The notes beneath the pieces are model-generated. The model was not told the origin of the DNA, did not search any database, and was given only the letters and a program-made list of their open reading frames with translations. Shown piece after piece: positions 24,187 to 33,557 of a stretch of 64,000 nucleotides of DNA. This DNA comes from an uncultured Candidatus Rokubacteria bacterium (GTDB lineage: Bacteria; Methylomirabilota; Methylomirabilia; Rokubacteriales; CSP1-6). Every line of letters starts with the position of its first letter. Positions within the stretch are counted from its first letter, which is position 1. The stretch spans positions 128,001 to 192,000 of the forward strand of contig CAVVEU010000033.1 in the NCBI GenBank assembly GCA_963747235.1, given 5' to 3'. A program made the translations under genes and the position numbers.

Positions 24187-25889
24187 GTGAGCCCGGCCCC
24201 CGCCCCGGCGGGCTCGTCGCGGGCGGCGCTGCGGGATCCGGTCCTGGCCCCGGTGGTCCTGCTGCTCTGGGCGGCCGTCGCGCTCTTCGTTCTCTACCCG
24301 GTCACCCGGCTGCTCGCGCTGACGTTCTGGGACGACGGCCCGACGCTCGGCGCGGTACGCGAGCTCGTCGGGAGCTGGCAGCATCGCCGGGCGCTCTGGA
24401 ACAGCCTGGTCCTGGCCGGCCTGGTGGGCGCGGCGGGCACCGCGCTCGGCTTCGCCTTCGCGCTCCTGGCCGTCCGGGCGAACCTGCCGCGCTGGGTGGG
24501 CACGGTTCTCGATACCATCGTCCTGCTGCCGCTGATCTCCCCGCCCTTCACCGCCGCCATCGCCCTCATCTTCGCCCTGGGCCCGCGGGGGCTCATCTCC
24601 TATCACGTGTTCGGCATCACCGGCCTCAACATCTACGGCCTCGGCGGCACGCTCCTGTCGGAGACGCTCACCTACTTCCCGATCGCCTATCTCACGCTCA
24701 AGGGCGTGCTCGCCAACATCGACCCGAACCTGGAAGACGGCGGCTTCAGCCTCGGGCGCGCGGCGCTTGCGCGTGTTCCGCACCATCACCGTGCCGCTCG
24801 CGGCGCCGGGGATCGCCAACGCGTTCCTGCTCCTCACCGCGGCGTCGCTGGCCGACTTCGCCACCCCGCTGATCCTGGGCGGCACCAAGTTCCCGGTGCT
24901 CCCCACCCAGGCCTTTCTCCAGATCACCGGGCTCTACGACATGCGGGGCGGCGCCGCGCTCTCGTTCCTGCTGCTGGTCCCCGCGCTGGCCGTCTTCGTG
25001 GCCCAGCGCTGGTGGACGGAGCGCCGCTCGGTGGTCACGGTGACCGGCAAGGTGGGCGCGGCCACGCGCGTGAAGAGCCTCTCGCCCGGGGCGGTGGCGG
25101 CGCTGGCCCTGGTGTGCGCGCTCACCGTGACGCTGGTGCTGACCTTCTACCTGCTGATCGTGTTCGCCTCGCTGGTGCGGGCCCTGGGCGCGGACAACAG
25201 CTTCTCCACCGCCCACTACGCCCACGTGTTCAGCGGCGGGCTCAAGGCCATCCGCGACACCCTCGTCATCGCGGCGGTGTGCATGCCGGCGGGCGGGCTC
25301 TTCGCGGTGGTGCTGGGCTACGTGGTGGCGCGCACCCAGTTTCCCGGGACGCCGGGCCCTGGAGTTCGCGGCCATGATCAACTACGCGCTGCCCGGGACC
25401 ATCGTGGGCATCGCGTACCTGGTGGCGTTCAACGATCCGCCCCTGGCGCTGACCGGCACCGCGTTCATCCTGGTGATCTGCTACGTGTTCCGCTACAGCC
25501 TGGCCGGCACCCGCGCCACCACCGCGCTGCTCGCGCAGGTGGACCCGTCGATCGAGGAGGCCTCGGCGAGCCTCGGGGCGCGAAGGGACGTGACGTTTCG
25601 CCGGATCGTGCTCCCGCTGATCCGGCCCGCGCTGCTCGCGGGCATGACCGTGCTCTTCATCCGGGCCATGACCGCGATCAGCGCCACCATCTTCCTGGTC
25701 TCGCTGAGCTGGTCGCTGGTGACGGTGCGCATCCTCGAGGGCATCACCAATCTCGAGCTGGGGCAGGCCTCGGCCTTCTCGGTGCTGGTCATCCTGCTCG
25801 TCTACGCCGCGGTCATCCTCTCCAGCCTGGTCATGCGCCGGCTCAACGCGGGCAGCCTCGGCCAGGCGGGCACGCTGCTGGGCGGATGA
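24187..25889 (+). CDS. Duplicated-domain ABC permease, FbpB/AfuB type (frameshifts near 24760 and 25345)
   Basis: LPLISPPF, IDPNLED, SLADFATPLILGG, ALPGTIVG, VDPSIEEAS spread over three frames. Confidence 0.85.
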
Positions 25890-26986
25890 GCGCGGCGGGC
25901 GCGCGGCTCCGGCTCGTCTCCGTCTCCAAGCGCTTCGTCCGCGCCGAGCAGGGCGTGGCCGCGGTGGACGACGTGAGCCTCACCGTGGAGCCGGGCGAGC
26001 TGCTGACCCTGCTCGGGCCCTCCGGCTGCGGCAAGACCACGACCTTGCGAATGGTCGCGGGCTTCGAGCAGCCGGACTCGGGGCGGGTCCTGATCGACGA
26101 GCAGGACGTCACCGGCCTCATGGTCTACCGCCGGAGCATCGGCTTCGTGTTCCAGAACTACGCGCTCTTCCCGCACCTCACCGTGTTCGAGAACGTGGCC
26201 TACGGCCTGCGCGTGAAGCGGCTCGCCGCGGGCGCGATCCGCGAGCGGGTGGAGCGCGTGCTCGCCCTGGTGGGGCTCCCCGGCTACGAGCGCCGCTTCC
26301 CGAACCAGCTCTCGGGCGGCGAGCAGCAGCGGGTCGCGGTGGCGCGCGCGGTGGTGGTGGAGCCGCGGCTGCTCCTCTTCGACGAGCCGCTCAGCAACCT
26401 GGACGCCAAGCTGCGGGTGCAGATGCGCGAGGAGCTCTCGCGGCTGCAGCGCCAGCTCGCCATCACCACGATCTACGTGACCCACGACCAGGAAGAGGCG
26501 ATGGCCATCTCCGACCGCATCGCGGTGATGCACGCGGGCCGCGTGGCCCAGGTCGGCACCGCGCACGATCTCTACCGCGCGCCGCGCTCCGTGTTCGTCG
26601 CCCAGTTCATCGGCCGCGTCAACCTCCTGCCCGCCCGCGTGGTGCGCGCGGACCCCGGCGCCGCGGTGGTGGCCCTCTGGGGGCGCGAGATCCCGGTGCC
26701 CGCCGAGGAGCCGGCCGCGGCCGGGCAGACCGTGTCCCTGGTGCTGCGGCCCGAATCGGTGGCGCTCCTGCCCGAGGGCGCGGCCGCGCCGGCGGGGGAG
26801 GTCGCCGTCGCGGGCGTGGTGCGGAGCCGGACGTTCCTGGGCGAGAAGGTCGAGTACGCGGTGGAGGTCGCGGGCGTGCTGCTCCAGGCCGTCTCCTACG
26901 ATCCGCTCCGCCACGGCCTCTTCGACCTGGGCGCCCGCGTCCAGATCGCCTGCGCGCCCGCCTCCCTCCGCGTCCTCCGCGCCTGA
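25886..26986 (+). CDS. ABC ATP-binding protein, FbpC/PotA type with TOBE domain
   Basis: GPSGCGKTT, FQNYALFPH, LSGGEQQR, DEPLSNLD, VTHDQEEA. Confidence 0.93.
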   Translation: MSAAGARLRLVSVSKRFVRAEQGVAAVDDVSLTVEPGELLTLLGPSGCGKTTTLRMVAGFEQPDSGRVLIDEQDVTGLMVYRRSIGFVFQNYALFPHLTVFENVAYGLRVKRLAAGAIRERVERVLALVGLPGYERRFPNQLSGGEQQRVAVARAVVVEPRLLLFDEPLSNLDAKLRVQMREELSRLQRQLAITTIYVTHDQEEAMAISDRIAVMHAGRVAQVGTAHDLYRAPRSVFVAQFIGRVNLLPARVVRADPGAAVVALWGREIPVPAEEPAAAGQTVSLVLRPESVALLPEGAAAPAGEVAVAGVVRSRTFLGEKVEYAVEVAGVLLQAVSYDPLRHGLFDLGARVQIACAPASLRVLRA

Positions 26987-26992
26987 CCCCAG

Positions 26993-28306
26993 CTACCGCG
27001 CCATCATCTGGCGGGGGAGCCAGAGGGCGAGCTCGGGGAAGAGGAAGAGCAGGATCACCATGAGGATCATCAGCAGCACGTAGGGCGTGGTGCCCACCGT
27101 GACCTCGCGGGCGGTGCTGCCCGGCATCAGGCCCTGGATGACGAAGAGGTTCAGCCCCACCGGCGGCGTGATGAAGCCGATCTCGAGCCACACCACCATG
27201 ATGATGCCGAACCACACCGGGTCGAAGCCCAGGCCGGTGATGAGGGGGAAGAGGATCGGCAGCAGGATGATCATCACCGACAGCTCCTCGAGCGCGTAGG
27301 CGATCACGAGGAGGAACGAGAACACCGCGGTGAAGAAGGCCCACTTGGGCAGCCCGAGCGAGACCACGTAGGCGAGCAGGGCCTTGGGCGCGCCGATCAG
27401 GGCGATGACGTGGGAGAAGATGGCCGCGAAGATGATGATGGCCATCACCATCGAGGTGGTGCGCACCGTCTCCTCGAAGGCGCGCCGCATCGCCACCCAG
27501 GTGAGGGTCCCCGCCCACCAGGCGAGCAGCAGGCTCACCATGGTGCCCAGCGCCGCGGCCTCGGTGGGCGTGACGATGCCCAGGTACATCGAGCCCAGCA
27601 CCACCACGATCAGGATCGCGACCGGCAGCACCTCGCGCAGGGCCTCGAGCTTGGAGGCGAAGGAGCCGCGGTCCTCGGCCGCGCGCGGCGCCGCCTCCGG
27701 CCAGATCATCGCGTAGACGATCACGTAGGCCGCGAAGATCAGCGACAGCAGGATGCCCGGGATGATGCCCGCCATGTAGAGATGGCCCACCGAGGTCTCG
27801 GTCATCACCCCGTAGATGATCATCGGGATCGACGGCGGGATCAGGATGCCCAGCGTGCCCCCCGCGGCGAGCGAGCCGATGATCACGCTGCGGCGATAGC
27901 CGCGGCGCTCCATCTCGGGAATCGCGATCATGCCGATGGTGGCCGCGGTGGCCACGCTCGAGCCCGACACCGCCGCGAACACCGCGCAGGAGAAGATGCT
28001 CGCCACCGCGAGGCCGCCGGGCAGGAAGCCGACCCAGCGCGCCATCGCCCGGAAGAGGCCGCGGCCGATGCCCGAGTGCAGCAGGATGCCGCTCATGAAC
28101 ACGAAGAGCGGCACCGCGATGAACGAGAAGCTGGTGGCGTTGGACCAGGCGATGGACCCGATGACGCCCAGGCCCACCGTGAAGCCCTTGAGGTAGAGCA
28201 GCCCGAGCAGGCCGACCAGCCCGAGCGCGATGGACACCTCGAGCCCGAGGGCCAGCAGGAGGAACATGAGCCCGATCAGCAGGCTCCCGAGCAGGGCGTC
28301 GGTCAA
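26993..28306 (-). CDS. dctM: TRAP transporter large permease
   Basis: AVPLFVFM, FAAVSGSSVATAATIG, GGTLGILIPPS, ITPPVGLNLFV; TTG start overlaps the dctQ stop. Confidence 0.92.
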   Translation of the reverse strand: MTDALLGSLLIGLMFLLLALGLEVSIALGLVGLLGLLYLKGFTVGLGVIGSIAWSNATSFSFIAVPLFVFMSGILLHSGIGRGLFRAMARWVGFLPGGLAVASIFSCAVFAAVSGSSVATAATIGMIAIPEMERRGYRRSVIIGSLAAGGTLGILIPPSIPMIIYGVMTETSVGHLYMAGIIPGILLSLIFAAYVIVYAMIWPEAAPRAAEDRGSFASKLEALREVLPVAILIVVVLGSMYLGIVTPTEAAALGTMVSLLLAWWAGTLTWVAMRRAFEETVRTTSMVMAIIIFAAIFSHVIALIGAPKALLAYVVSLGLPKWAFFTAVFSFLLVIAYALEELSVMIILLPILFPLITGLGFDPVWFGIIMVVWLEIGFITPPVGLNLFVIQGLMPGSTAREVTVGTTPYVLLMILMVILLFLFPELALWLPRQMMAR

Positions 28307-28815
28307 CGGGGCTCCGTGGACGGCGGCACCTCGTCGCGCCCGGCGGGCGGCCCCAGCGCGGCGCGGAGCTGGCGGCGGAGGGCGCCGAGCATGACCGCGC
28401 TCATCAGGAGGAGGCCGGCCGGGATGAGCAGCATGGGCGCCCAGAGCGGGTACAGCATGACGGTGGACACGCGCCCGTACCGGTAGGCGGTGAGCGCGGA
28501 CTGCAGCGTGGTCCACGACACCACGAGGATGAACGCGATGCCCAGCGCCAGGCCGGCGGCCCGCAGCCAGGCGCGCAGCGCGGGCGGCAGGTGCGTGGTG
28601 ATCAGGTCCACCCGCACGTGCCCGCCGCTCAGGAAGGTGTAGGCGAGGCCGCCGAAGATCACCAGCACCAGGAGGAAGCTCGCCACCTCGTCCACGAAGA
28701 GCAGCGGCGAGTTGAGGAAGTAGCGGAGCAGGACGTCGGCGGAGATGAACACCGCGATGGCCAGCGTGGCGATGCCGGCCAGCAGCGCGGCGACCCAGGA
28801 GAGCCGCGCGATCAC
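28303..28815 (-). CDS. dctQ: TRAP transporter small permease
   Basis: DVLLRYFLNSPL, DEVA, GGHVRVD; four hydrophobic segments. Confidence 0.9.
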   Translation of the reverse strand: MIARLSWVAALLAGIATLAIAVFISADVLLRYFLNSPLLFVDEVASFLLVLVIFGGLAYTFLSGGHVRVDLITTHLPPALRAWLRAAGLALGIAFILVVSWTTLQSALTAYRYGRVSTVMLYPLWAPMLLIPAGLLLMSAVMLGALRRQLRAALGPPAGRDEVPPSTEPR

Positions 28816-28940
28816 AGCCCGAGCATCCGCAGCGCCTGCTCCACGACCTCCGCGAGCGCGGGCTCCGCCGAGCCCCCGAGGCTGCCCGACGCGATGGCGA
28901 GGGCCGCCGCCGCGGTCATGATCCAGGCGAGCCGGTTCAC
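28812..28940 (-). pseudogene. 42-aa ORF, probable internally deleted TRAP DctP (signal peptide plus C-terminal tail)
   Basis: GTG..TGA, MNRLAWIMTAAAALAIASGSLGGSAEPALA-EVVEQALRMLGL; GTGA overlaps at both ends; sits where dctP is expected. Confidence 0.5.
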
Positions 28941-29446
28941 CGGAGCAGCCCCGCGACGATGTCGGCGAGCGCGGCTTCGGCCTTGCGCCGCTGATCCTCC
29001 GCGGTCTCCCCGCCCTTCCGATGCGGGATCACCACCAGGGCCAGGTCCGGCACGTTCTGCAGCCGCGCCTGCATGCGCGCCGCGTTCTCGAAATTATCCC
29101 AGACGATCGTCACGGTATGGATCCCCCGCTTCTCCAGCGCGGCGGCGTCGAGCACACTGCCCGACGTGCACGAGCCTCAGAGCCCGATGCCCACCACCGC
29201 CGCGCTCGCGGCGGCCGCGGCCTCGTCGATGAGGGCGCGCGGCGAGGGCGCGGTGCCGGACGGCTTCACCAGCCGCCGCACGGTGGCCCCGTGCTCGCGG
29301 CCCAGCAGCGCCTCGAGATGGGTGGTGAACGGGATGTCGAGATTGTCGTCCACCAGGGCGATGGTGGCGCCCGCGAGCGCGCGCGGCCGCGCCGCCGCGG
29401 ATCCGCCGCCGCCGAGCTCGGGCCAGACCGGGCTCAGGATCTCCAT
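28937..29446 (-). CDS. UGSC-family selenoprotein (169 aa, Sec at TGA 29179-29177)
   Basis: ORFs 29177-29446 and 28937-29155 are in the same frame; read-through gives ..VVGIGL-U-GSCTSGSVLDAAALEKRGIHTV..; SECIS-like hairpin follows. Confidence 0.85.
29146..29166 (-). promoter_or_regulatory. Putative bacterial SECIS element
   Basis: CGUCGGGCA-GUG-UGCUCGACG, 9-bp stem with one G-U pair; starts 10 nt after the UGA; G-led apical loop about 20 nt from the UGA. Confidence 0.65.
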
Positions 29447-29449
29447 CGC

Positions 29450-30520
29450 TCAGGCCCTCCGGATCGCGCGGGTGACCGCGAAGCCCCCGAAGCCGCCCCA
29501 GCCGGGCAGCACCGCCGCGAAGTAGCTGCGCCCGCCCGCCACCGCGATGTGGATGTCGTCCGGCTCCGCGGAGACCGGGACGCGGGTGGTCGGGTTGTCG
29601 AGGTCGTAGCGGAGCGGGTAGCGGCCGGCGTCGCGCTCCATCTTCCGGAACTGCTCGTGCACCACCCCGCACGCCCGCACCTCGGCGATCGGCCGGCGCG
29701 CGTGCTCCCAGAGGTAGCGGCGCACGTCGGTCTTGGACCAGCCGCGCTTGGCGAACTCCTCGGCGTTGAGCGGGTTCAGCACCACCAGCATCTGCCCCAT
29801 CACGTGCATGTTGTTGTTGCCGAGCCCGCACATGGAGTCGGTCAGCACGTGGAGCATCTCCTCCGGCGTGCCGTAGCAGAAGACGCTGTGCGGCCCCTCG
29901 CAGGCGAAGACGGTCACCGCGTCGGACCCCGGCGGGCAGCCGCGCTCCACGTGCAGCGGCGCCCACGGGTTGTCTTCCTCCTCTTCCGCGATGCAGAACG
30001 CGTACTCGCCCGGGTGGGAGAGCGTGGCCTTGTCGGTGTCCCACGGCACCGCGCCGCCCAGGTTCCACAGCGCCAGCCGCACCGCGCGCCCCACCGCCGC
30101 GTTGGCCCGGTAGCCGTTGCCGAAGACCCCGTCGCGCGAGTTGAAGCCGAGCTCGCGCGCGATGGGGCCGTTGACGATGACCAGGGGCACGCACATGTGG
30201 GTGGTCTGGCTCACCCCGTTGAGATTGTGGGCGGGGTCGAGCAGCGCCTCCAGCGCGGCCAGCACCACCGGGAAGTGCGCGGGCAGGCAGCCGCCCATCA
30301 CCGCGTTGATGGCCAGCTTCTCGACCGTCGCGGGGCCGCCCTTGGGCGGCACCGGGCCCAGGCTCTCCTGCGGGTCGCGGCCCGCTCCCGCGATCATCGC
30401 CTCCACGCGCCGCCGCGTGGGCAGCACGACCGGGAGACCGTCGGTCCAGTTCCGCTGGTAGAAGAGCTCCACCGCCTCGTCGTAGTCGTCGATGTCGAGG
30501 CGTTCCGAGACGAGATACAT
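29450..30520 (-). CDS. Uncharacterised protein of the 'WTDGLPV' family (UGSC partner)
   Basis: WTDGLPVVLPT, ATVEKLAINAVMGGC, NGP, RANAAVGRA, AEEEEDNPWAPLHVERG, DIHIAVAGG; AGGAG RBS before ATG 30520. Confidence 0.8.
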   Translation of the reverse strand: MYLVSERLDIDDYDEAVELFYQRNWTDGLPVVLPTRRRVEAMIAGAGRDPQESLGPVPPKGGPATVEKLAINAVMGGCLPAHFPVVLAALEALLDPAHNLNGVSQTTHMCVPLVIVNGPIARELGFNSRDGVFGNGYRANAAVGRAVRLALWNLGGAVPWDTDKATLSHPGEYAFCIAEEEEDNPWAPLHVERGCPPGSDAVTVFACEGPHSVFCYGTPEEMLHVLTDSMCGLGNNNMHVMGQMLVVLNPLNAEEFAKRGWSKTDVRRYLWEHARRPIAEVRACGVVHEQFRKMERDAGRYPLRYDLDNPTTRVPVSAEPDDIHIAVAGGRSYFAAVLPGWGGFGGFAVTRAIRRA

Positions 30521-30599
30521 GGGCGGTCGATCTCCTGGGCCGGATGGGCGGCGCCGTATTGTCCCCGATTCCTCCCGGCGCGACAAGCGGCTTGAGCCC

Positions 30600-30628
30600 T
30601 TGACTTCTCCGGCGCCTCGCGCTATCGG
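30600..30628 (+). promoter_or_regulatory. Sigma70-type promoter
   Basis: TTGACT-17 nt-TATCGG, 23 nt upstream of ATG 30652. Confidence 0.4.
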
Positions 30629-30651
30629 TGTCGGACCCCCCACCGGGATCC

Positions 30652-32440
30652 ATGGACGAAGCGGCCCTTCGGGAGATGCTCGCGCAGGTGAAGCACGGCG
30701 GTCTCACGCGCCGGCGCTTCGTGCAGGCGCTCGCCGCGCGCCGGCCTCGGCGCCCCGGTGGCCGGCGGCCTCCTGGGCGCGGCGGGCGTGGCCACCGCGC
30801 AGCCGCGCGAGGCCGACTTCACACCCACCCGGCGCGGCGGCGGCGGCACCCTCCGCATGCTGATGTGGGACGCGCCCACCCTGCTGCACCCGCACTTCGG
30901 CCGCGGCCTCCGCGACTTCACGGTCCAGCGGATCTTCTACGAGCCGCTCGCCGCCCCCGCCGCCGACGGCACCTTCGTGCCGGTCCTGGCCGAGGAGCTG
31001 CCCAACCGCAAGGCGGGCACGCTGGCCAAGGACGGGCAATGGGTGACGTGGCGGCTCAAGCGCAACGTGCTCTGGCACGACGGCGCTCCGTTCACCGCCG
31101 ACGACGTGATCTTCAACTGGGAGTTCGCGATCGACCCCGCCACCGCCGCGGGCACCCGCGCGGCGTACGACGACATCACGCGGATCGAGAAGATCGACTC
31201 GCACACCGTGAAGCTCGTCTTCAAGAAGCCGCAGCCCTTCTGGGCCTCCGCGTTCACCGGCGGCGGGCTGCTCCCGCGCCACCTCTTCGAGCGGGCGAAG
31301 GGCGCGGGCGCCCGCGAGGCGATCGGCATGCTGCCCGCGGTCGGCACCGGGCCCTACCGGCTCGCCGAGTTCCGGCCGGGCGACTTCATCCGCGCGGAGA
31401 TCAACAAGCACTACCACGTGCCGAACCGGCCGTTCTTCGACCAGCTCGAGATCAAGTGCGGCGGCGACGCGGTGGGGGCGGCCCGCGCGGTGCTGCAGAC
31501 CGGCGAGTACGACTTCGCCTACTACGTGCTGGTGGAAGAAGAGGTCCTGCGGCGGATCGAGCAGGGCGGCAAGGGCCGCGTCCTCTCCATCCCGAGCAGC
31601 GGGGTGAGCTTCATCCAGTGCAACCAGACGGATCCCTGGCGCGAGGTGGACGGCGAGCGCTCGAGCCTCAAGGCCCCCCACCCGCAGCTCAGCGAGCAGC
31701 CGGTGCGCACCGCGCTGAGCCTGCTGGTGGACCGCGTGGCCATCCAGGAGCACCTGGTGGGGCGGATCGGCCAGATCACGGCCAACTTCCTGACCTCCCC
31801 GGAGCGCTTCCGCTCGAGGAGCAGCACCTGGGAGTTCAACGTCGAGAAGGCCAACGATCTCCTGGACCAGGCGGGTTACGCGCGCGGCCCCGACGGAGTC
31901 CGCGCCAAGGACGGCCGGCGCCTGCGCTTACTGTTCCAGGCCGCGGCCAACAGCACGGTGCAGAAGATCCAGATGGTGGTCAAGCAGACGGCCGCGCGCG
32001 CGGGCGTGGAGATGGAAGTGAAGGCGATTCCGGCCTCGGTGTTCTTCGCCGCCGACGTCAACAACGTCGACACCAACGTCCGCTTCCTCGCGGATCTCCA
32101 GACCTACACCGTGTTCACCGGCCTCGACCCCCAGCTCTTCATGGCCCAGTTCGTGTCCTGGGAGGTGCCCACCAAGGAGAACGGCTGGACCGGGCGGAAC
32201 ATCGCGCGGTGGCGGAACGCGGACTACGACCGGCTGTGGCGCAAGGCGGACGTGGAGATGGACCCGGTCAAGCGGGCCGCCCTGTTCATCAAGATGAACG
32301 ACCTCGTGGTGCAGAAGGCGGTCGTGATTCCGGTGACGTGGCGCAACGTGCTCCACGCCGCCGCCAACAACCTGGCCGGCGTGGAGCTCAACTCGTGGGA
32401 CTCCATCTTCGGCCGGATCGCGTACTGGTACCGGGCCTAG
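30652..32440 (+). CDS. Orphan ABC family-5 substrate-binding protein with extended Tat signal (frameshift near 30738)
   Basis: MDEAALREMLAQVKHGGLTRRRFVQAL joins ORF 30758-32440 (LKRNVLWHDG, VGTGPY). Confidence 0.88.
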
Positions 32441-32512: not shown

Positions 32513-33557
32513 TTACAGGTCCTTGACGTCGACGGTCTGGCCGGTGGTGGCGCTGCGGGTCACCGCGTCCGTGAACTCCATGTAGCGCACGCCGTCCTCG
32601 AAGGTGGTGCGCGCGATCTTCTCGCGGCCCCGGATCGCGTTGACGAACTCCTCCTCCACCCGCCAGCCGATGCGCGTCTTGGGCGGCACCGGGATCTCCC
32701 GCAGCGCCGACTCCCCCCGCCGGGCCCCGGTGAGCCGGAGCGCGTCGGCTTCCAGTTTCAACGTCCCCTCGCTCCCGTAGATCCACGCCTCGGAGGCGGG
32801 GGCCAGCGCGGTCACCGAGCTGAAGCGCAGGTGGGCCACCGCGCCGCGCCGGAGCTGGGCCAGGATGTCCACGTGGTCCGGGACCTTGATCTCGTGGGTC
32901 GCGCCCGCCGCGTCCTTCCGCTTCGGCACCGCGACCTTGGTCATCGAGGTCACCCGCTGCGCGGGGCCGAGCCAGCGCATCATCGCCTCGTACCAGATCC
33001 CCATGTTGAGGATGTTGTGGCCGCTGAGCGCCATGTCGTGCCGCCAGTGCAGCGGGGCGTCCGGCTCGACGAAGCGGCCCGACGAGGACTGCAGCTCGAC
33101 CGCGAGCACCTCGCCCAGGAAGCCCTCGGCGAGCAGCGCCTGGACGGTGGCGTCCAGCTCGAGGGTGTGGGGCGCGGGCACGAGCTGGGCGATCAGGCTC
33201 GGCGCCTTGCGCGAGGCCTCGAGCATGCGCCGGCCCTCGGTGGCGTTCATGGCCATGCGCGCCTCGCAGAGCACGTGCTTGCCCGCGCCGAGCACCGCGG
33301 TCGTCATCTCGCAGTGCATGTAGGGCCAGGTGCCGATGCACACCGCGTCGATGTCGGGCGCGTTGACGATCTCCTGCCAGCTCGCGTGCACCCGGCCGAT
33401 GCCGAACTCGCGCGCCACCTTCTCGCCCGACTCCTTCGACCGGTTCGCGACCGCGACCAGCTCGACGCCGGGCTGGGCCTTGAGCTTGGGGATGTGATGC
33501 TTGCGCGTGTTGGCGCCGGCGCCGATGAAGCCGACGCGGATCTTCGCAGTCGGTCAT
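32513..33557 (-). CDS. Gfo/Idh/MocA family oxidoreductase (frameshift near 33548)
   Basis: KIRVGFIGAGANTRKHH, DIDAVCIGTWPYMH, GKHVLCEARMA; ATG 33557 is out of frame by 1 nt. Confidence 0.88.

Follow-up and report, generated by a model that had tools for sequence, protein, structure and literature searches.

The minus strand of a 64,000-nt stretch of DNA from an uncultured Candidatus Rokubacteria bacterium (contig CAVVEU010000033.1, assembly GCA_963747235.1), which we call the window and whose positions serve as coordinates throughout, carries a gene for a UGSC-family selenoprotein, preceded by the gene of a 356-residue protein that we call its partner and followed by the genes of the two membrane subunits of a tripartite ATP-independent periplasmic (TRAP) transporter (Table 1). 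The G+C content of the window is 70.8%. An initial annotation, made from the sequence alone, listed five minus-strand genes here, separated by 3-nt gaps or 4-nt overlaps, and our check of positions and junctions bears out all five reading frames: the partner and UGSC genes lie 3 nt apart (TGA GCG ATG), and the junctions that follow are the 4-nt overlaps GTGA, GTGA and TTGA. The third of these frames, of 42 codons, is better read as a relic of the TRAP binding-protein gene dctP than as a gene. DctQ and DctM are both present at full length, and dctP is represented in cis by this relic only.

Table 1. Features of the locus in window coordinates
Feature	Position	Strand	Basis and remarks
Partner protein gene (WTDGLPV motif)	29450..30520	-	356 aa; open reading frame and translation
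UGSC-family selenoprotein gene	28937..29446	-	169 aa, selenocysteine at codon 90; translation with TGA=U
In-frame UGA read as selenocysteine	29177..29179	-	motif L-U-G-S-C
SECIS-like hairpin, 9-bp stem and 3-nt loop	29146..29166	-	fold and covariation
42-codon dctP relic, leader-like start and C-terminal end	28812..28940	-	no family match; position, dN/dS
dctQ, TRAP transporter small membrane subunit	28303..28815	-	PF04290 E 1.8e-26, 131/132 profile positions
dctM, TRAP transporter large membrane subunit	26993..28306	-	PF06808 E 1.2e-89, 413/413; TIGR00786 338 bits, cut-off 268
Divergent intergenic region between partner gene and SBP_bac_5 gene	30521..30757	.	presumed promoter region, from gene positions

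Partner and UGSC genes form a conserved pair

The partner and UGSC genes behave as one unit. Among 25 genome loci of close relatives, 24 have a UGSC gene adjoining the partner gene (the contig of the 25th stops at the partner gene); the same is true of all nine loci from other families of the same class and of 62 of 76 distant metagenome loci, which are 38-49% identical and include only 48 with 3 kb of flanking sequence on a side. Natural fusions of the two proteins occur in both domain orders; a complete UGSC domain is found in P0146, P0148, P0157, P0162 (a Cys form) and others, and the gene calls of P0139, P0134, P0129 and P0159 ended at the selenocysteine (Sec) codon. The partner is also fused to thioredoxin reductase (TrxR) with a CAVC motif (P0222) and to FeThRed_B, the catalytic domain of ferredoxin-thioredoxin reductase (P0147, P0136). 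In locus L018 the start of the partner gene is overlapped by a TrxR-like gene, in L021 another adjoins the second UGSC gene, and such genes lie within 5 kb in 4 of the 76 distant loci.

The initial annotation was right that WTDGLPV-type proteins stand beside UGSC or are fused with it, and that no reaction is assigned to them: no Pfam or NCBIfam model matches the partner, even at E<=10, and a 2026 review still lists UGSC with selenoproteins of largely uncharacterised function (PMC13188914). Its view of the pair as the best candidate for an undescribed system goes somewhat too far, since a fusion of UGSC with a conserved domain termed 'Unknown_1' has been in print since 2008 (Zhang and Gladyshev, PMC2398784), a domain that we infer to be the partner family. 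That fusion, like those found here, joins a conserved domain of unassigned role to UGSC, whereas the window has separate genes with a 3-nt gap and a tie to a transporter; if the two domains are indeed the same, the system is an example of a published but uncharacterised association. The same source places the UGSC-containing family among the most abundant selenoproteins of the Global Ocean Sampling (GOS) aquatic metagenomes, without known function (PMC2398784).

The pair has expanded in this lineage. The genome from which the window comes has 11 places with partner genes, four of them split into pieces, probably by indel errors in the assembly, and nine of the 11 have a UGSC gene within 140 nt; its nine UGSC genes each contain one in-frame TGA, and every one lies within 140 nt of a partner gene. 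Across the phylum the partner is present in 45 of 61 sampled genomes, a tally that takes in two genomes flagged as unpublished. In the window's own bacterial family all 32 genomes have 3 to 14 partner matches each, and one other family has none in nine. A lineage with a single partner copy per genome has a LarA-like gene divergent from the pair (L066:9588-10850, L068:9400-10731), with a weak Lar_N match in L066 only and a LIV-type ATP-binding cassette (ABC) transporter about 1 kb further on.

The in-frame UGA encodes selenocysteine

Codons 89-93 of the UGSC gene spell L-U-G-S-C, and the in-frame UGA is a selenocysteine codon, backed by a covarying hairpin and by the genes for selenocysteine synthesis and decoding. 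In the Sec column, 21 of the 22 UGSC genes in the alignment read TGA and the other, L025, reads TGC, and the genome carries tRNA-Sec (C14:45384-45481), selA and selB, all on contig C14. A hairpin resembling a selenocysteine insertion sequence (SECIS) begins 13 nt past the U of the UGA. When it is aligned over 21 UGSC genes of this genome and its relatives, 92.1% of cells pair, with four of the nine pairs changed on both sides; none of 500 shuffles reached its covariation score, and slid controls pair at 23-49%. Covariation is the stronger argument, since coding sequence runs through the hairpin and a fold of the single sequence gives a z-score of only -0.65. No Rfam family matched in positions 26500-31500 at E<=1. 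The ratio of nonsynonymous to synonymous substitution rates (dN/dS) of the UGSC gene is 0.13-0.20.

The Sec machinery itself adjoins the pair in some genomes: selB lies directly upstream of it in two betaproteobacterial genomes (L019:5111-7012, L021:5714-7963), and SelB-like matches adjoin it in the metagenome loci L143 and L152. The pair may be a main client of the Sec machinery in genomes of the L019/L021 type.

By its U-G-S-C motif, its length and its match to PF24696 (E 6e-33, 114.8 bits against a cut-off of 25, far above the Pfam threshold) the window protein resembles the rest of the UGSC family (PF24696/NF041046). It differs in its NF041046 score, which is below the curated cut-off and is taken up in the Discussion, and in its predicted fold. 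Its AlphaFold2 (AF2) model (predicted local distance difference test, pLDDT, 86.0; 10-row alignment) contains five beta-alpha units, with Sec90 immediately ahead of helix 91-106. The top Foldseek matches of this model were the FtsZ N-domain, flavodoxin, TIR and AzoR, at template-modelling (TM) scores of 0.4-0.58, and no thioredoxin-fold chain is among the 43 matches listed (ranks up to 50). The best match of the UGSC profile to sequences of solved structures was FtsZ at E 0.066, which we take as chance. We tentatively predict a flavodoxin-like alpha/beta domain with U-G-S-C at the start of a helix; the 2008 paper by Zhang and Gladyshev calls the fold 'likely Trx-like' (PMC2398784).

The predicted partner fold has no clear solved relative

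The partner belongs to a very large family: 4203 of 8000 scored candidates match at E<=0.001, and 5385 cluster representatives match at E<=1e-3. The partner gene has a dN/dS of 0.06-0.10. One homologue, P0082, carries the label Ramlibacter sp. in its source. The best 120 homologues have no Pfam domain and are named 'hypothetical' wherever their source names them, the nearest protein-atlas clusters share no common Pfam family, and the best match of the partner profile to sequences of solved structures (E 0.27) is taken as chance. Its AF2 model, built from a 54-row alignment of the window and the fetched loci only, has pLDDT 88.7 and a predicted TM (pTM) score of 0.90. Foldseek placed class I fumarate hydratases first (E 7e-5, TM 0.22) and Toblerone-fold cyclic amide hydrolases next (5hy4, E 6e-4, TM 0.20). 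VIA-align gave no Z of 8 or above for the model; its top rows (Z 5.5) span just a chorismate-mutase/Rid-like sub-domain at residues 208-345, its longest alignment is to the Methanocaldococcus jannaschii fumarate hydratase 7xky_A (Z 4.9, 184 residues, root-mean-square deviation 5.2), and further rows include 5hy2_B (Z 4.2, 163 residues) and 6mso (Z 4.0). Judged by its model, then, the partner is without a clear solved relative. Among solved folds, only class I (Fe-S) fumarate hydratase and the Toblerone-fold hydrolases can be aligned along most of the model, but they do so at Z below 8 and TM 0.2-0.25, and the resemblance may be no more than a common alpha/beta module.

Conserved residues of the partner are D27, N140, G144-R145, E179, W186 and G329-G330, with R145, E179 and D27 each kept in 143 to 144 of 144 partner rows. 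The initial annotation envisaged a large Cys-containing subunit and pointed to the Cys of the motif AVMGGC as a possible docking site for UxxC; this residue, C78, is common (67/68 and 48/54), as is C176 (65/68 and 48/54), and neither is universal. We also considered an Fe-S hydro-lyase and dropped this identity because only two Cys are conserved, against the three needed as [4Fe-4S] ligands in a fumarase-type site. Two partner paralogues occur together at each of four loci, L026 (7269-8246 and 11484-12500, on contig C8 of the same genome as the window), L057, L106 and L116. At every one of these loci, C78 is replaced by Ala in one copy, which retains C176, and C176 by Val in the other, which retains C78; the A78-type and V176-type paralogues fall in separate well-supported clades. 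Their sequences suggest a hetero-oligomer with one Cys per subunit at a shared site.

These likenesses bear on the possibility, unlikely in our view, that the partner is a non-redox enzyme (a hydro-lyase, an isomerase or racemase, or a cyclic-amide hydrolase) and that UGSC keeps its catalytic Cys reduced or activates it. The faint resemblances to fumarate hydratase and to the Toblerone fold would suit such an enzyme, the two mostly conserved Cys recall two-Cys racemases, and each paralogue of the four two-paralogue loci lacks a different one of the two. All Z values, on the other hand, fall in the range that VIA-align labels a common arrangement, the Cys count does not fit a fumarase-type Fe-S site, and a Sec subunit for each enzyme together with fusions to thioredoxin reductase would be a costly provision for mere upkeep.

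The TRAP link belongs to one orthologue clade

The pair is followed by genes for DctQ, DctM or both in 18 of 25 related loci. As about 11 dctM places occur over the 5.57 Mb of the genome, the chance of such adjacency at a random place is about 2%, and the recurrence of the gene order together with this low figure indicates that the order is not due to chance. In a FastTree phylogeny of 144 partner sequences, the window's partner falls in a clade of 31 rows that contains Rokubacteria-type and betaproteobacterial sequences and whose local support is 100%. TRAP genes lie within 5 kb in 23 of the 31 rows inside this clade against 2 of the 113 outside it; since kin share labels, these counts show clustering and not independent events. 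Of the remaining clade rows, L021 carries a LIV-type ABC system immediately behind UGSC, a TctC gene is present in L025, and six have no such genes, four of these being short contigs.

The transporter next to the pair varies in kind. DctM of L020 and L077, in the slot after UGSC, is 37-44% identical to that of the window and represents different TRAP subfamilies; L019 has a window-type TRAP (DctM 75% identical) upstream on the opposite strand, and a second partner clade has a TRAP type of its own (L143 and the first TRAP of L020). Beyond the clade the link fades, with TRAP genes in only 1 of 76 distant loci and at none of the ten other partner places of the same genome. The coupling to TRAP genes that the initial annotation proposed thus holds as a property of one orthologue clade and not of the family. 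Our literature search found no paper that joins UGSC with a TRAP transporter.

Such a distribution could also be explained by a general thiol or selenol redox or repair function of the pair (peroxide, sulfoxide or disulfide reduction), with TRAP genes as neighbours through inherited order in one clade, an explanation that we consider rather unlikely, if by no means negligible. Most known prokaryotic selenoproteins are thiol-oxidoreductase-like (PMC2398784, PMC13188914), and the rows of the clade are kin, which makes tree counts overstate independence; 75 of the 76 distant loci and the other ten places of the genome likewise show no transporter link. A pattern of 3 to 14 partner matches in each of the 32 genomes of the bacterial family, with every UGSC gene of this genome beside a partner gene, is better suited to substrate-specific enzymes, however, and the slot after UGSC has been taken by different TRAP subfamilies and by a LIV-type ABC system. 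The invariant Arg, Glu and Asp of the partner further suggest a defined small-molecule site.

dctP appears to have moved to another contig

Of the 25 loci, 14 have a spacer of about 1.05-1.2 kb separating UGSC from dctQ, and in the four of these that we read (L005, L007, L008 and L020) a DctP gene of about 1.05 kb fills it. In the window, L001-L003 and L075 the spacer is about 125 nt, with the same short form of reading frame. The 42-codon frame of the window begins like a leader, and its end resembles the C-terminus of DctP. It matches no Pfam or NCBIfam family, it is 68-86% identical to its counterparts in L001-L003 against 88-97% for the flanking genes, and its dN/dS (0.79, from one comparison) is near neutral. 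These three observations rule it out as a small working gene, and with the full dctP of relatives they identify it, at the level of sequence, as a relic of dctP, where the initial annotation had counted a fifth gene.

A tblastn search found one DctP orthologue, 78% identical, elsewhere in the same genome (contig C4, G000:C4:84172-85191). It is intact, with a leader and the conserved carboxylate-binding Arg, and sits between two genes for LIV-type (Peripla_BP_6) binding proteins with no DctQM nearby. Each of five related genomes has exactly one such DctP: genomes with a complete operon have it in cis, those with the deletion have it elsewhere, and the trans copies of the deletion carriers (two other such genomes were searched) are 92-94% identical to that of this genome. 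By this pattern of sequences, dctP has moved to another contig and has not been lost. The trans DctP would then serve the DctQM of the window, and the transporter keeps part of the value as a handle on the substrate that the initial annotation gave it: an intact DctP orthologue is kept in the genome, although none works in cis. The C4 DctP gene (L065:9170-10222, minus strand) is close to a MetE-like Meth_synt_2 gene, and a Meth_synt_2 gene also follows dctM in L008.

The loss of dctP from the operon raises the question of whether the transporter half is a decaying remnant, with DctQM inactive and the pair acting on an internal metabolite. We think this improbable. Reduction of dctP to a 42-codon relic is what such decay would look like, TRAP genes have eroded further in L016, where two dctP fragments are all that is left, and in L004, which has none, and dN/dS of dctQ is raised (0.25-0.43 among deletion carriers). 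Yet dctQ and dctM match their profiles over the full length, the 4-nt overlaps persist, dN/dS of dctM is 0.12-0.15 among the genomes that share the deletion, and one intact DctP orthologue is kept in this genome and in the two other deletion-bearing genomes searched. Both dctQ and dctM are under purifying selection.

A substrate lead from the binding protein

The DctP of L007, which represents this operon type, falls in the DctP family NF037995, and its best solved relatives are 2pfy (E 1.5e-35) and 2pfz (E 6e-34). These are Bordetella pertussis DctP7 and DctP6, crystallised with pyroglutamic acid (PMC3454389; PMC5812351), and an Arg-carboxylate contact in TRAP binding proteins is described as limiting their substrates to carboxylates (PMC4646407). 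The operon-type DctP shares the conserved Arg with DctP6 and DctP7. It differs from them at about two positions in three by our estimate from the alignment, and the DctP that follows UGSC in L020 is closer to 4n4u (3e-45), with 2pfy and 2pfz after it; a literature search for 4N4U gave no relevant paper on its ligand.

Several orthologues in the clade have further metabolic genes nearby: a family III CoA-transferase in L007, L013 and L020, MmgE/PrpD in L021, L024 and L025, an enoyl-CoA hydratase in L019, L020 and L021, and also SDR, HIBADH-like and TctC genes. From their sequences, these neighbours are compatible with organic-acid catabolism.

RNA-library contigs bridge the gene junctions

Contigs from four metatranscriptome libraries (two studies) match the locus at an identity of at least 92%, and in X15 and X16 they occupy all 30 bins. 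The dctM/dctQ junction is bridged by X15 record 4, the dctQ/relic/UGSC junction by X15 record 5 and X16 record 12, and the UGSC/partner junction by X15 record 6, X16 records 13 and 14 and X17 record 22. As contigs of this kind can neither show a single transcript nor exclude DNA, they are not proof of co-transcription.

Discussion

Alongside the gene order, the Sec decoding signals, the fusions, the clade-specific transporter link, the relocation of dctP and the purifying selection that we observe, we regard it as moderately probable that the partner and UGSC are the two subunits of a cytoplasmic selenol/thiol-dependent reductase whose substrate, in this clade, is a small carboxylate imported by the TRAP transporter. 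The initial annotation had proposed a two-subunit Sec enzyme acting on an imported organic acid; the pair does form a unit and this is the best reading for the clade, while the tie to TRAP is limited to that clade. On the redox cycle and the way electrons flow, and on the class of substrate and the reaction, we propose the following. UGSC would be the redox-active part: every turnover would oxidise it to a selenenyl-sulfide, and a thioredoxin-type system would then restore the reduced form. The partner would bind the substrate, with R145, E179 and D27 near-invariant and C78 and C176 usually kept. The carboxylate would enter through DctQM encoded in the operon and DctP supplied from the other contig, and because the nearest solved relatives of DctP bind pyroglutamate, a pyroglutamate-like monocarboxylate, cyclic or amide-bearing, would be the first candidate.

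A number of our observations weigh against this reading. The window has lost dctP in cis, and five of the 25 orthologous loci with enough flank (L004, L016, L018, L021 and L025) are without window-type DctQM; their absence there, with L016 down to dctP fragments, means that the TRAP link is dispensable. The neighbours of the other ten partner places in the genome are mixed and include MFS, TTT with a molybdopterin enzyme, EamA, IclR, SDR, an NDH2-like flavoprotein and an ABC binding protein. The CoA-transferase, PrpD-like, enoyl-CoA hydratase and SDR families found near orthologues occur very widely in genomes of this kind. C78 is absent from part of the partner family, as is C176, and 2 of 144 rows have neither; a fixed Cys relay therefore cannot be a feature of every partner. 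The UGSC protein scores 84.2 bits against NF041046 (UGSC_fam), under the curated cut-off of 125, and searches of solved structures by sequence and fold returned no characterised relative of either protein. The identity of DctP to DctP6 and DctP7, estimated at about one third, is too low for the transfer of a ligand, which makes pyroglutamate a lead and not an assignment. Finally, one RNA-library contig also spans the divergent promoter region, and DNA carry-over is possible.

The two-subunit reductase that we favour has a counterpart in known biochemistry. In the glycine/sarcosine/betaine and D-proline reductases (GrdB/PrdB with GrdE/PrdA), a UxxC selenoprotein is paired with a larger substrate-binding protein, electrons come from a thioredoxin system, and small amino or organic acids serve as substrates. 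By analogy, protein B of these enzymes would follow the same working logic that we propose for UGSC and its partner. The proteins themselves differ: in hmmscan at E<=10, with filters that drop most weak matches, UGSC matches only PF24696 and the partner nothing, and thus neither falls in PF07355 or PF09338, which we take to be the GRDB and pyruvoyl proprotein families. Nor are there Grd or Prd chains among the fold matches listed for the partner and UGSC models. PrdB carries a UxxC motif, as given in Table 2 of Zhang and Gladyshev (PMC2398784).

Carried one step further, the reductase reading would have the pair of this clade open or reduce a pyroglutamate-like carboxylate, cyclic or amide-bearing and imported by its TRAP system, in a Sec-dependent reaction and pass the product to genes of the CoA-transferase and enoyl-CoA hydratase type that lie near several orthologues. 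In this specific form we hold it to be distinctly unlikely, and it is worth stating for what would follow. If true, aerobic bacteria of soil and freshwater would have an ATP-independent, Stickland-like route, and one of the selenoprotein families most abundant in the environment would gain its first reaction. More broadly, the tie of the pair to a binding-protein-dependent importer offers a practical handle on the role of UGSC, as DctP can be expressed alone and screened for ligands. Given the expansion of the pair in a soil lineage, we also anticipate that selenium supply may shape the use of organic acids by these uncultured bacteria.

Flanking genes and assembly quality

A promoter scan of the operon region found no sigma-70-like site, and the single terminator-like match in the scan lies inside dctM. 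Downstream, an ABC-transporter permease (24187-25889, plus strand) can be read only through two frame changes, and the ATPase gene after it (25880-26986) is intact; in view of this twice-shifted frame and of the split partner paralogues elsewhere in the genome, the assembly probably contains indel errors. On the other side, an SBP_bac_5 gene (30758-32440, plus strand) diverges from the operon and is followed by a GFO/IDH/MocA oxidoreductase gene (32513-33418, minus strand). This flank is conserved only in the closest relatives L001, L003 and L004, with the SBP_bac_5 gene also found in L002 and L075.

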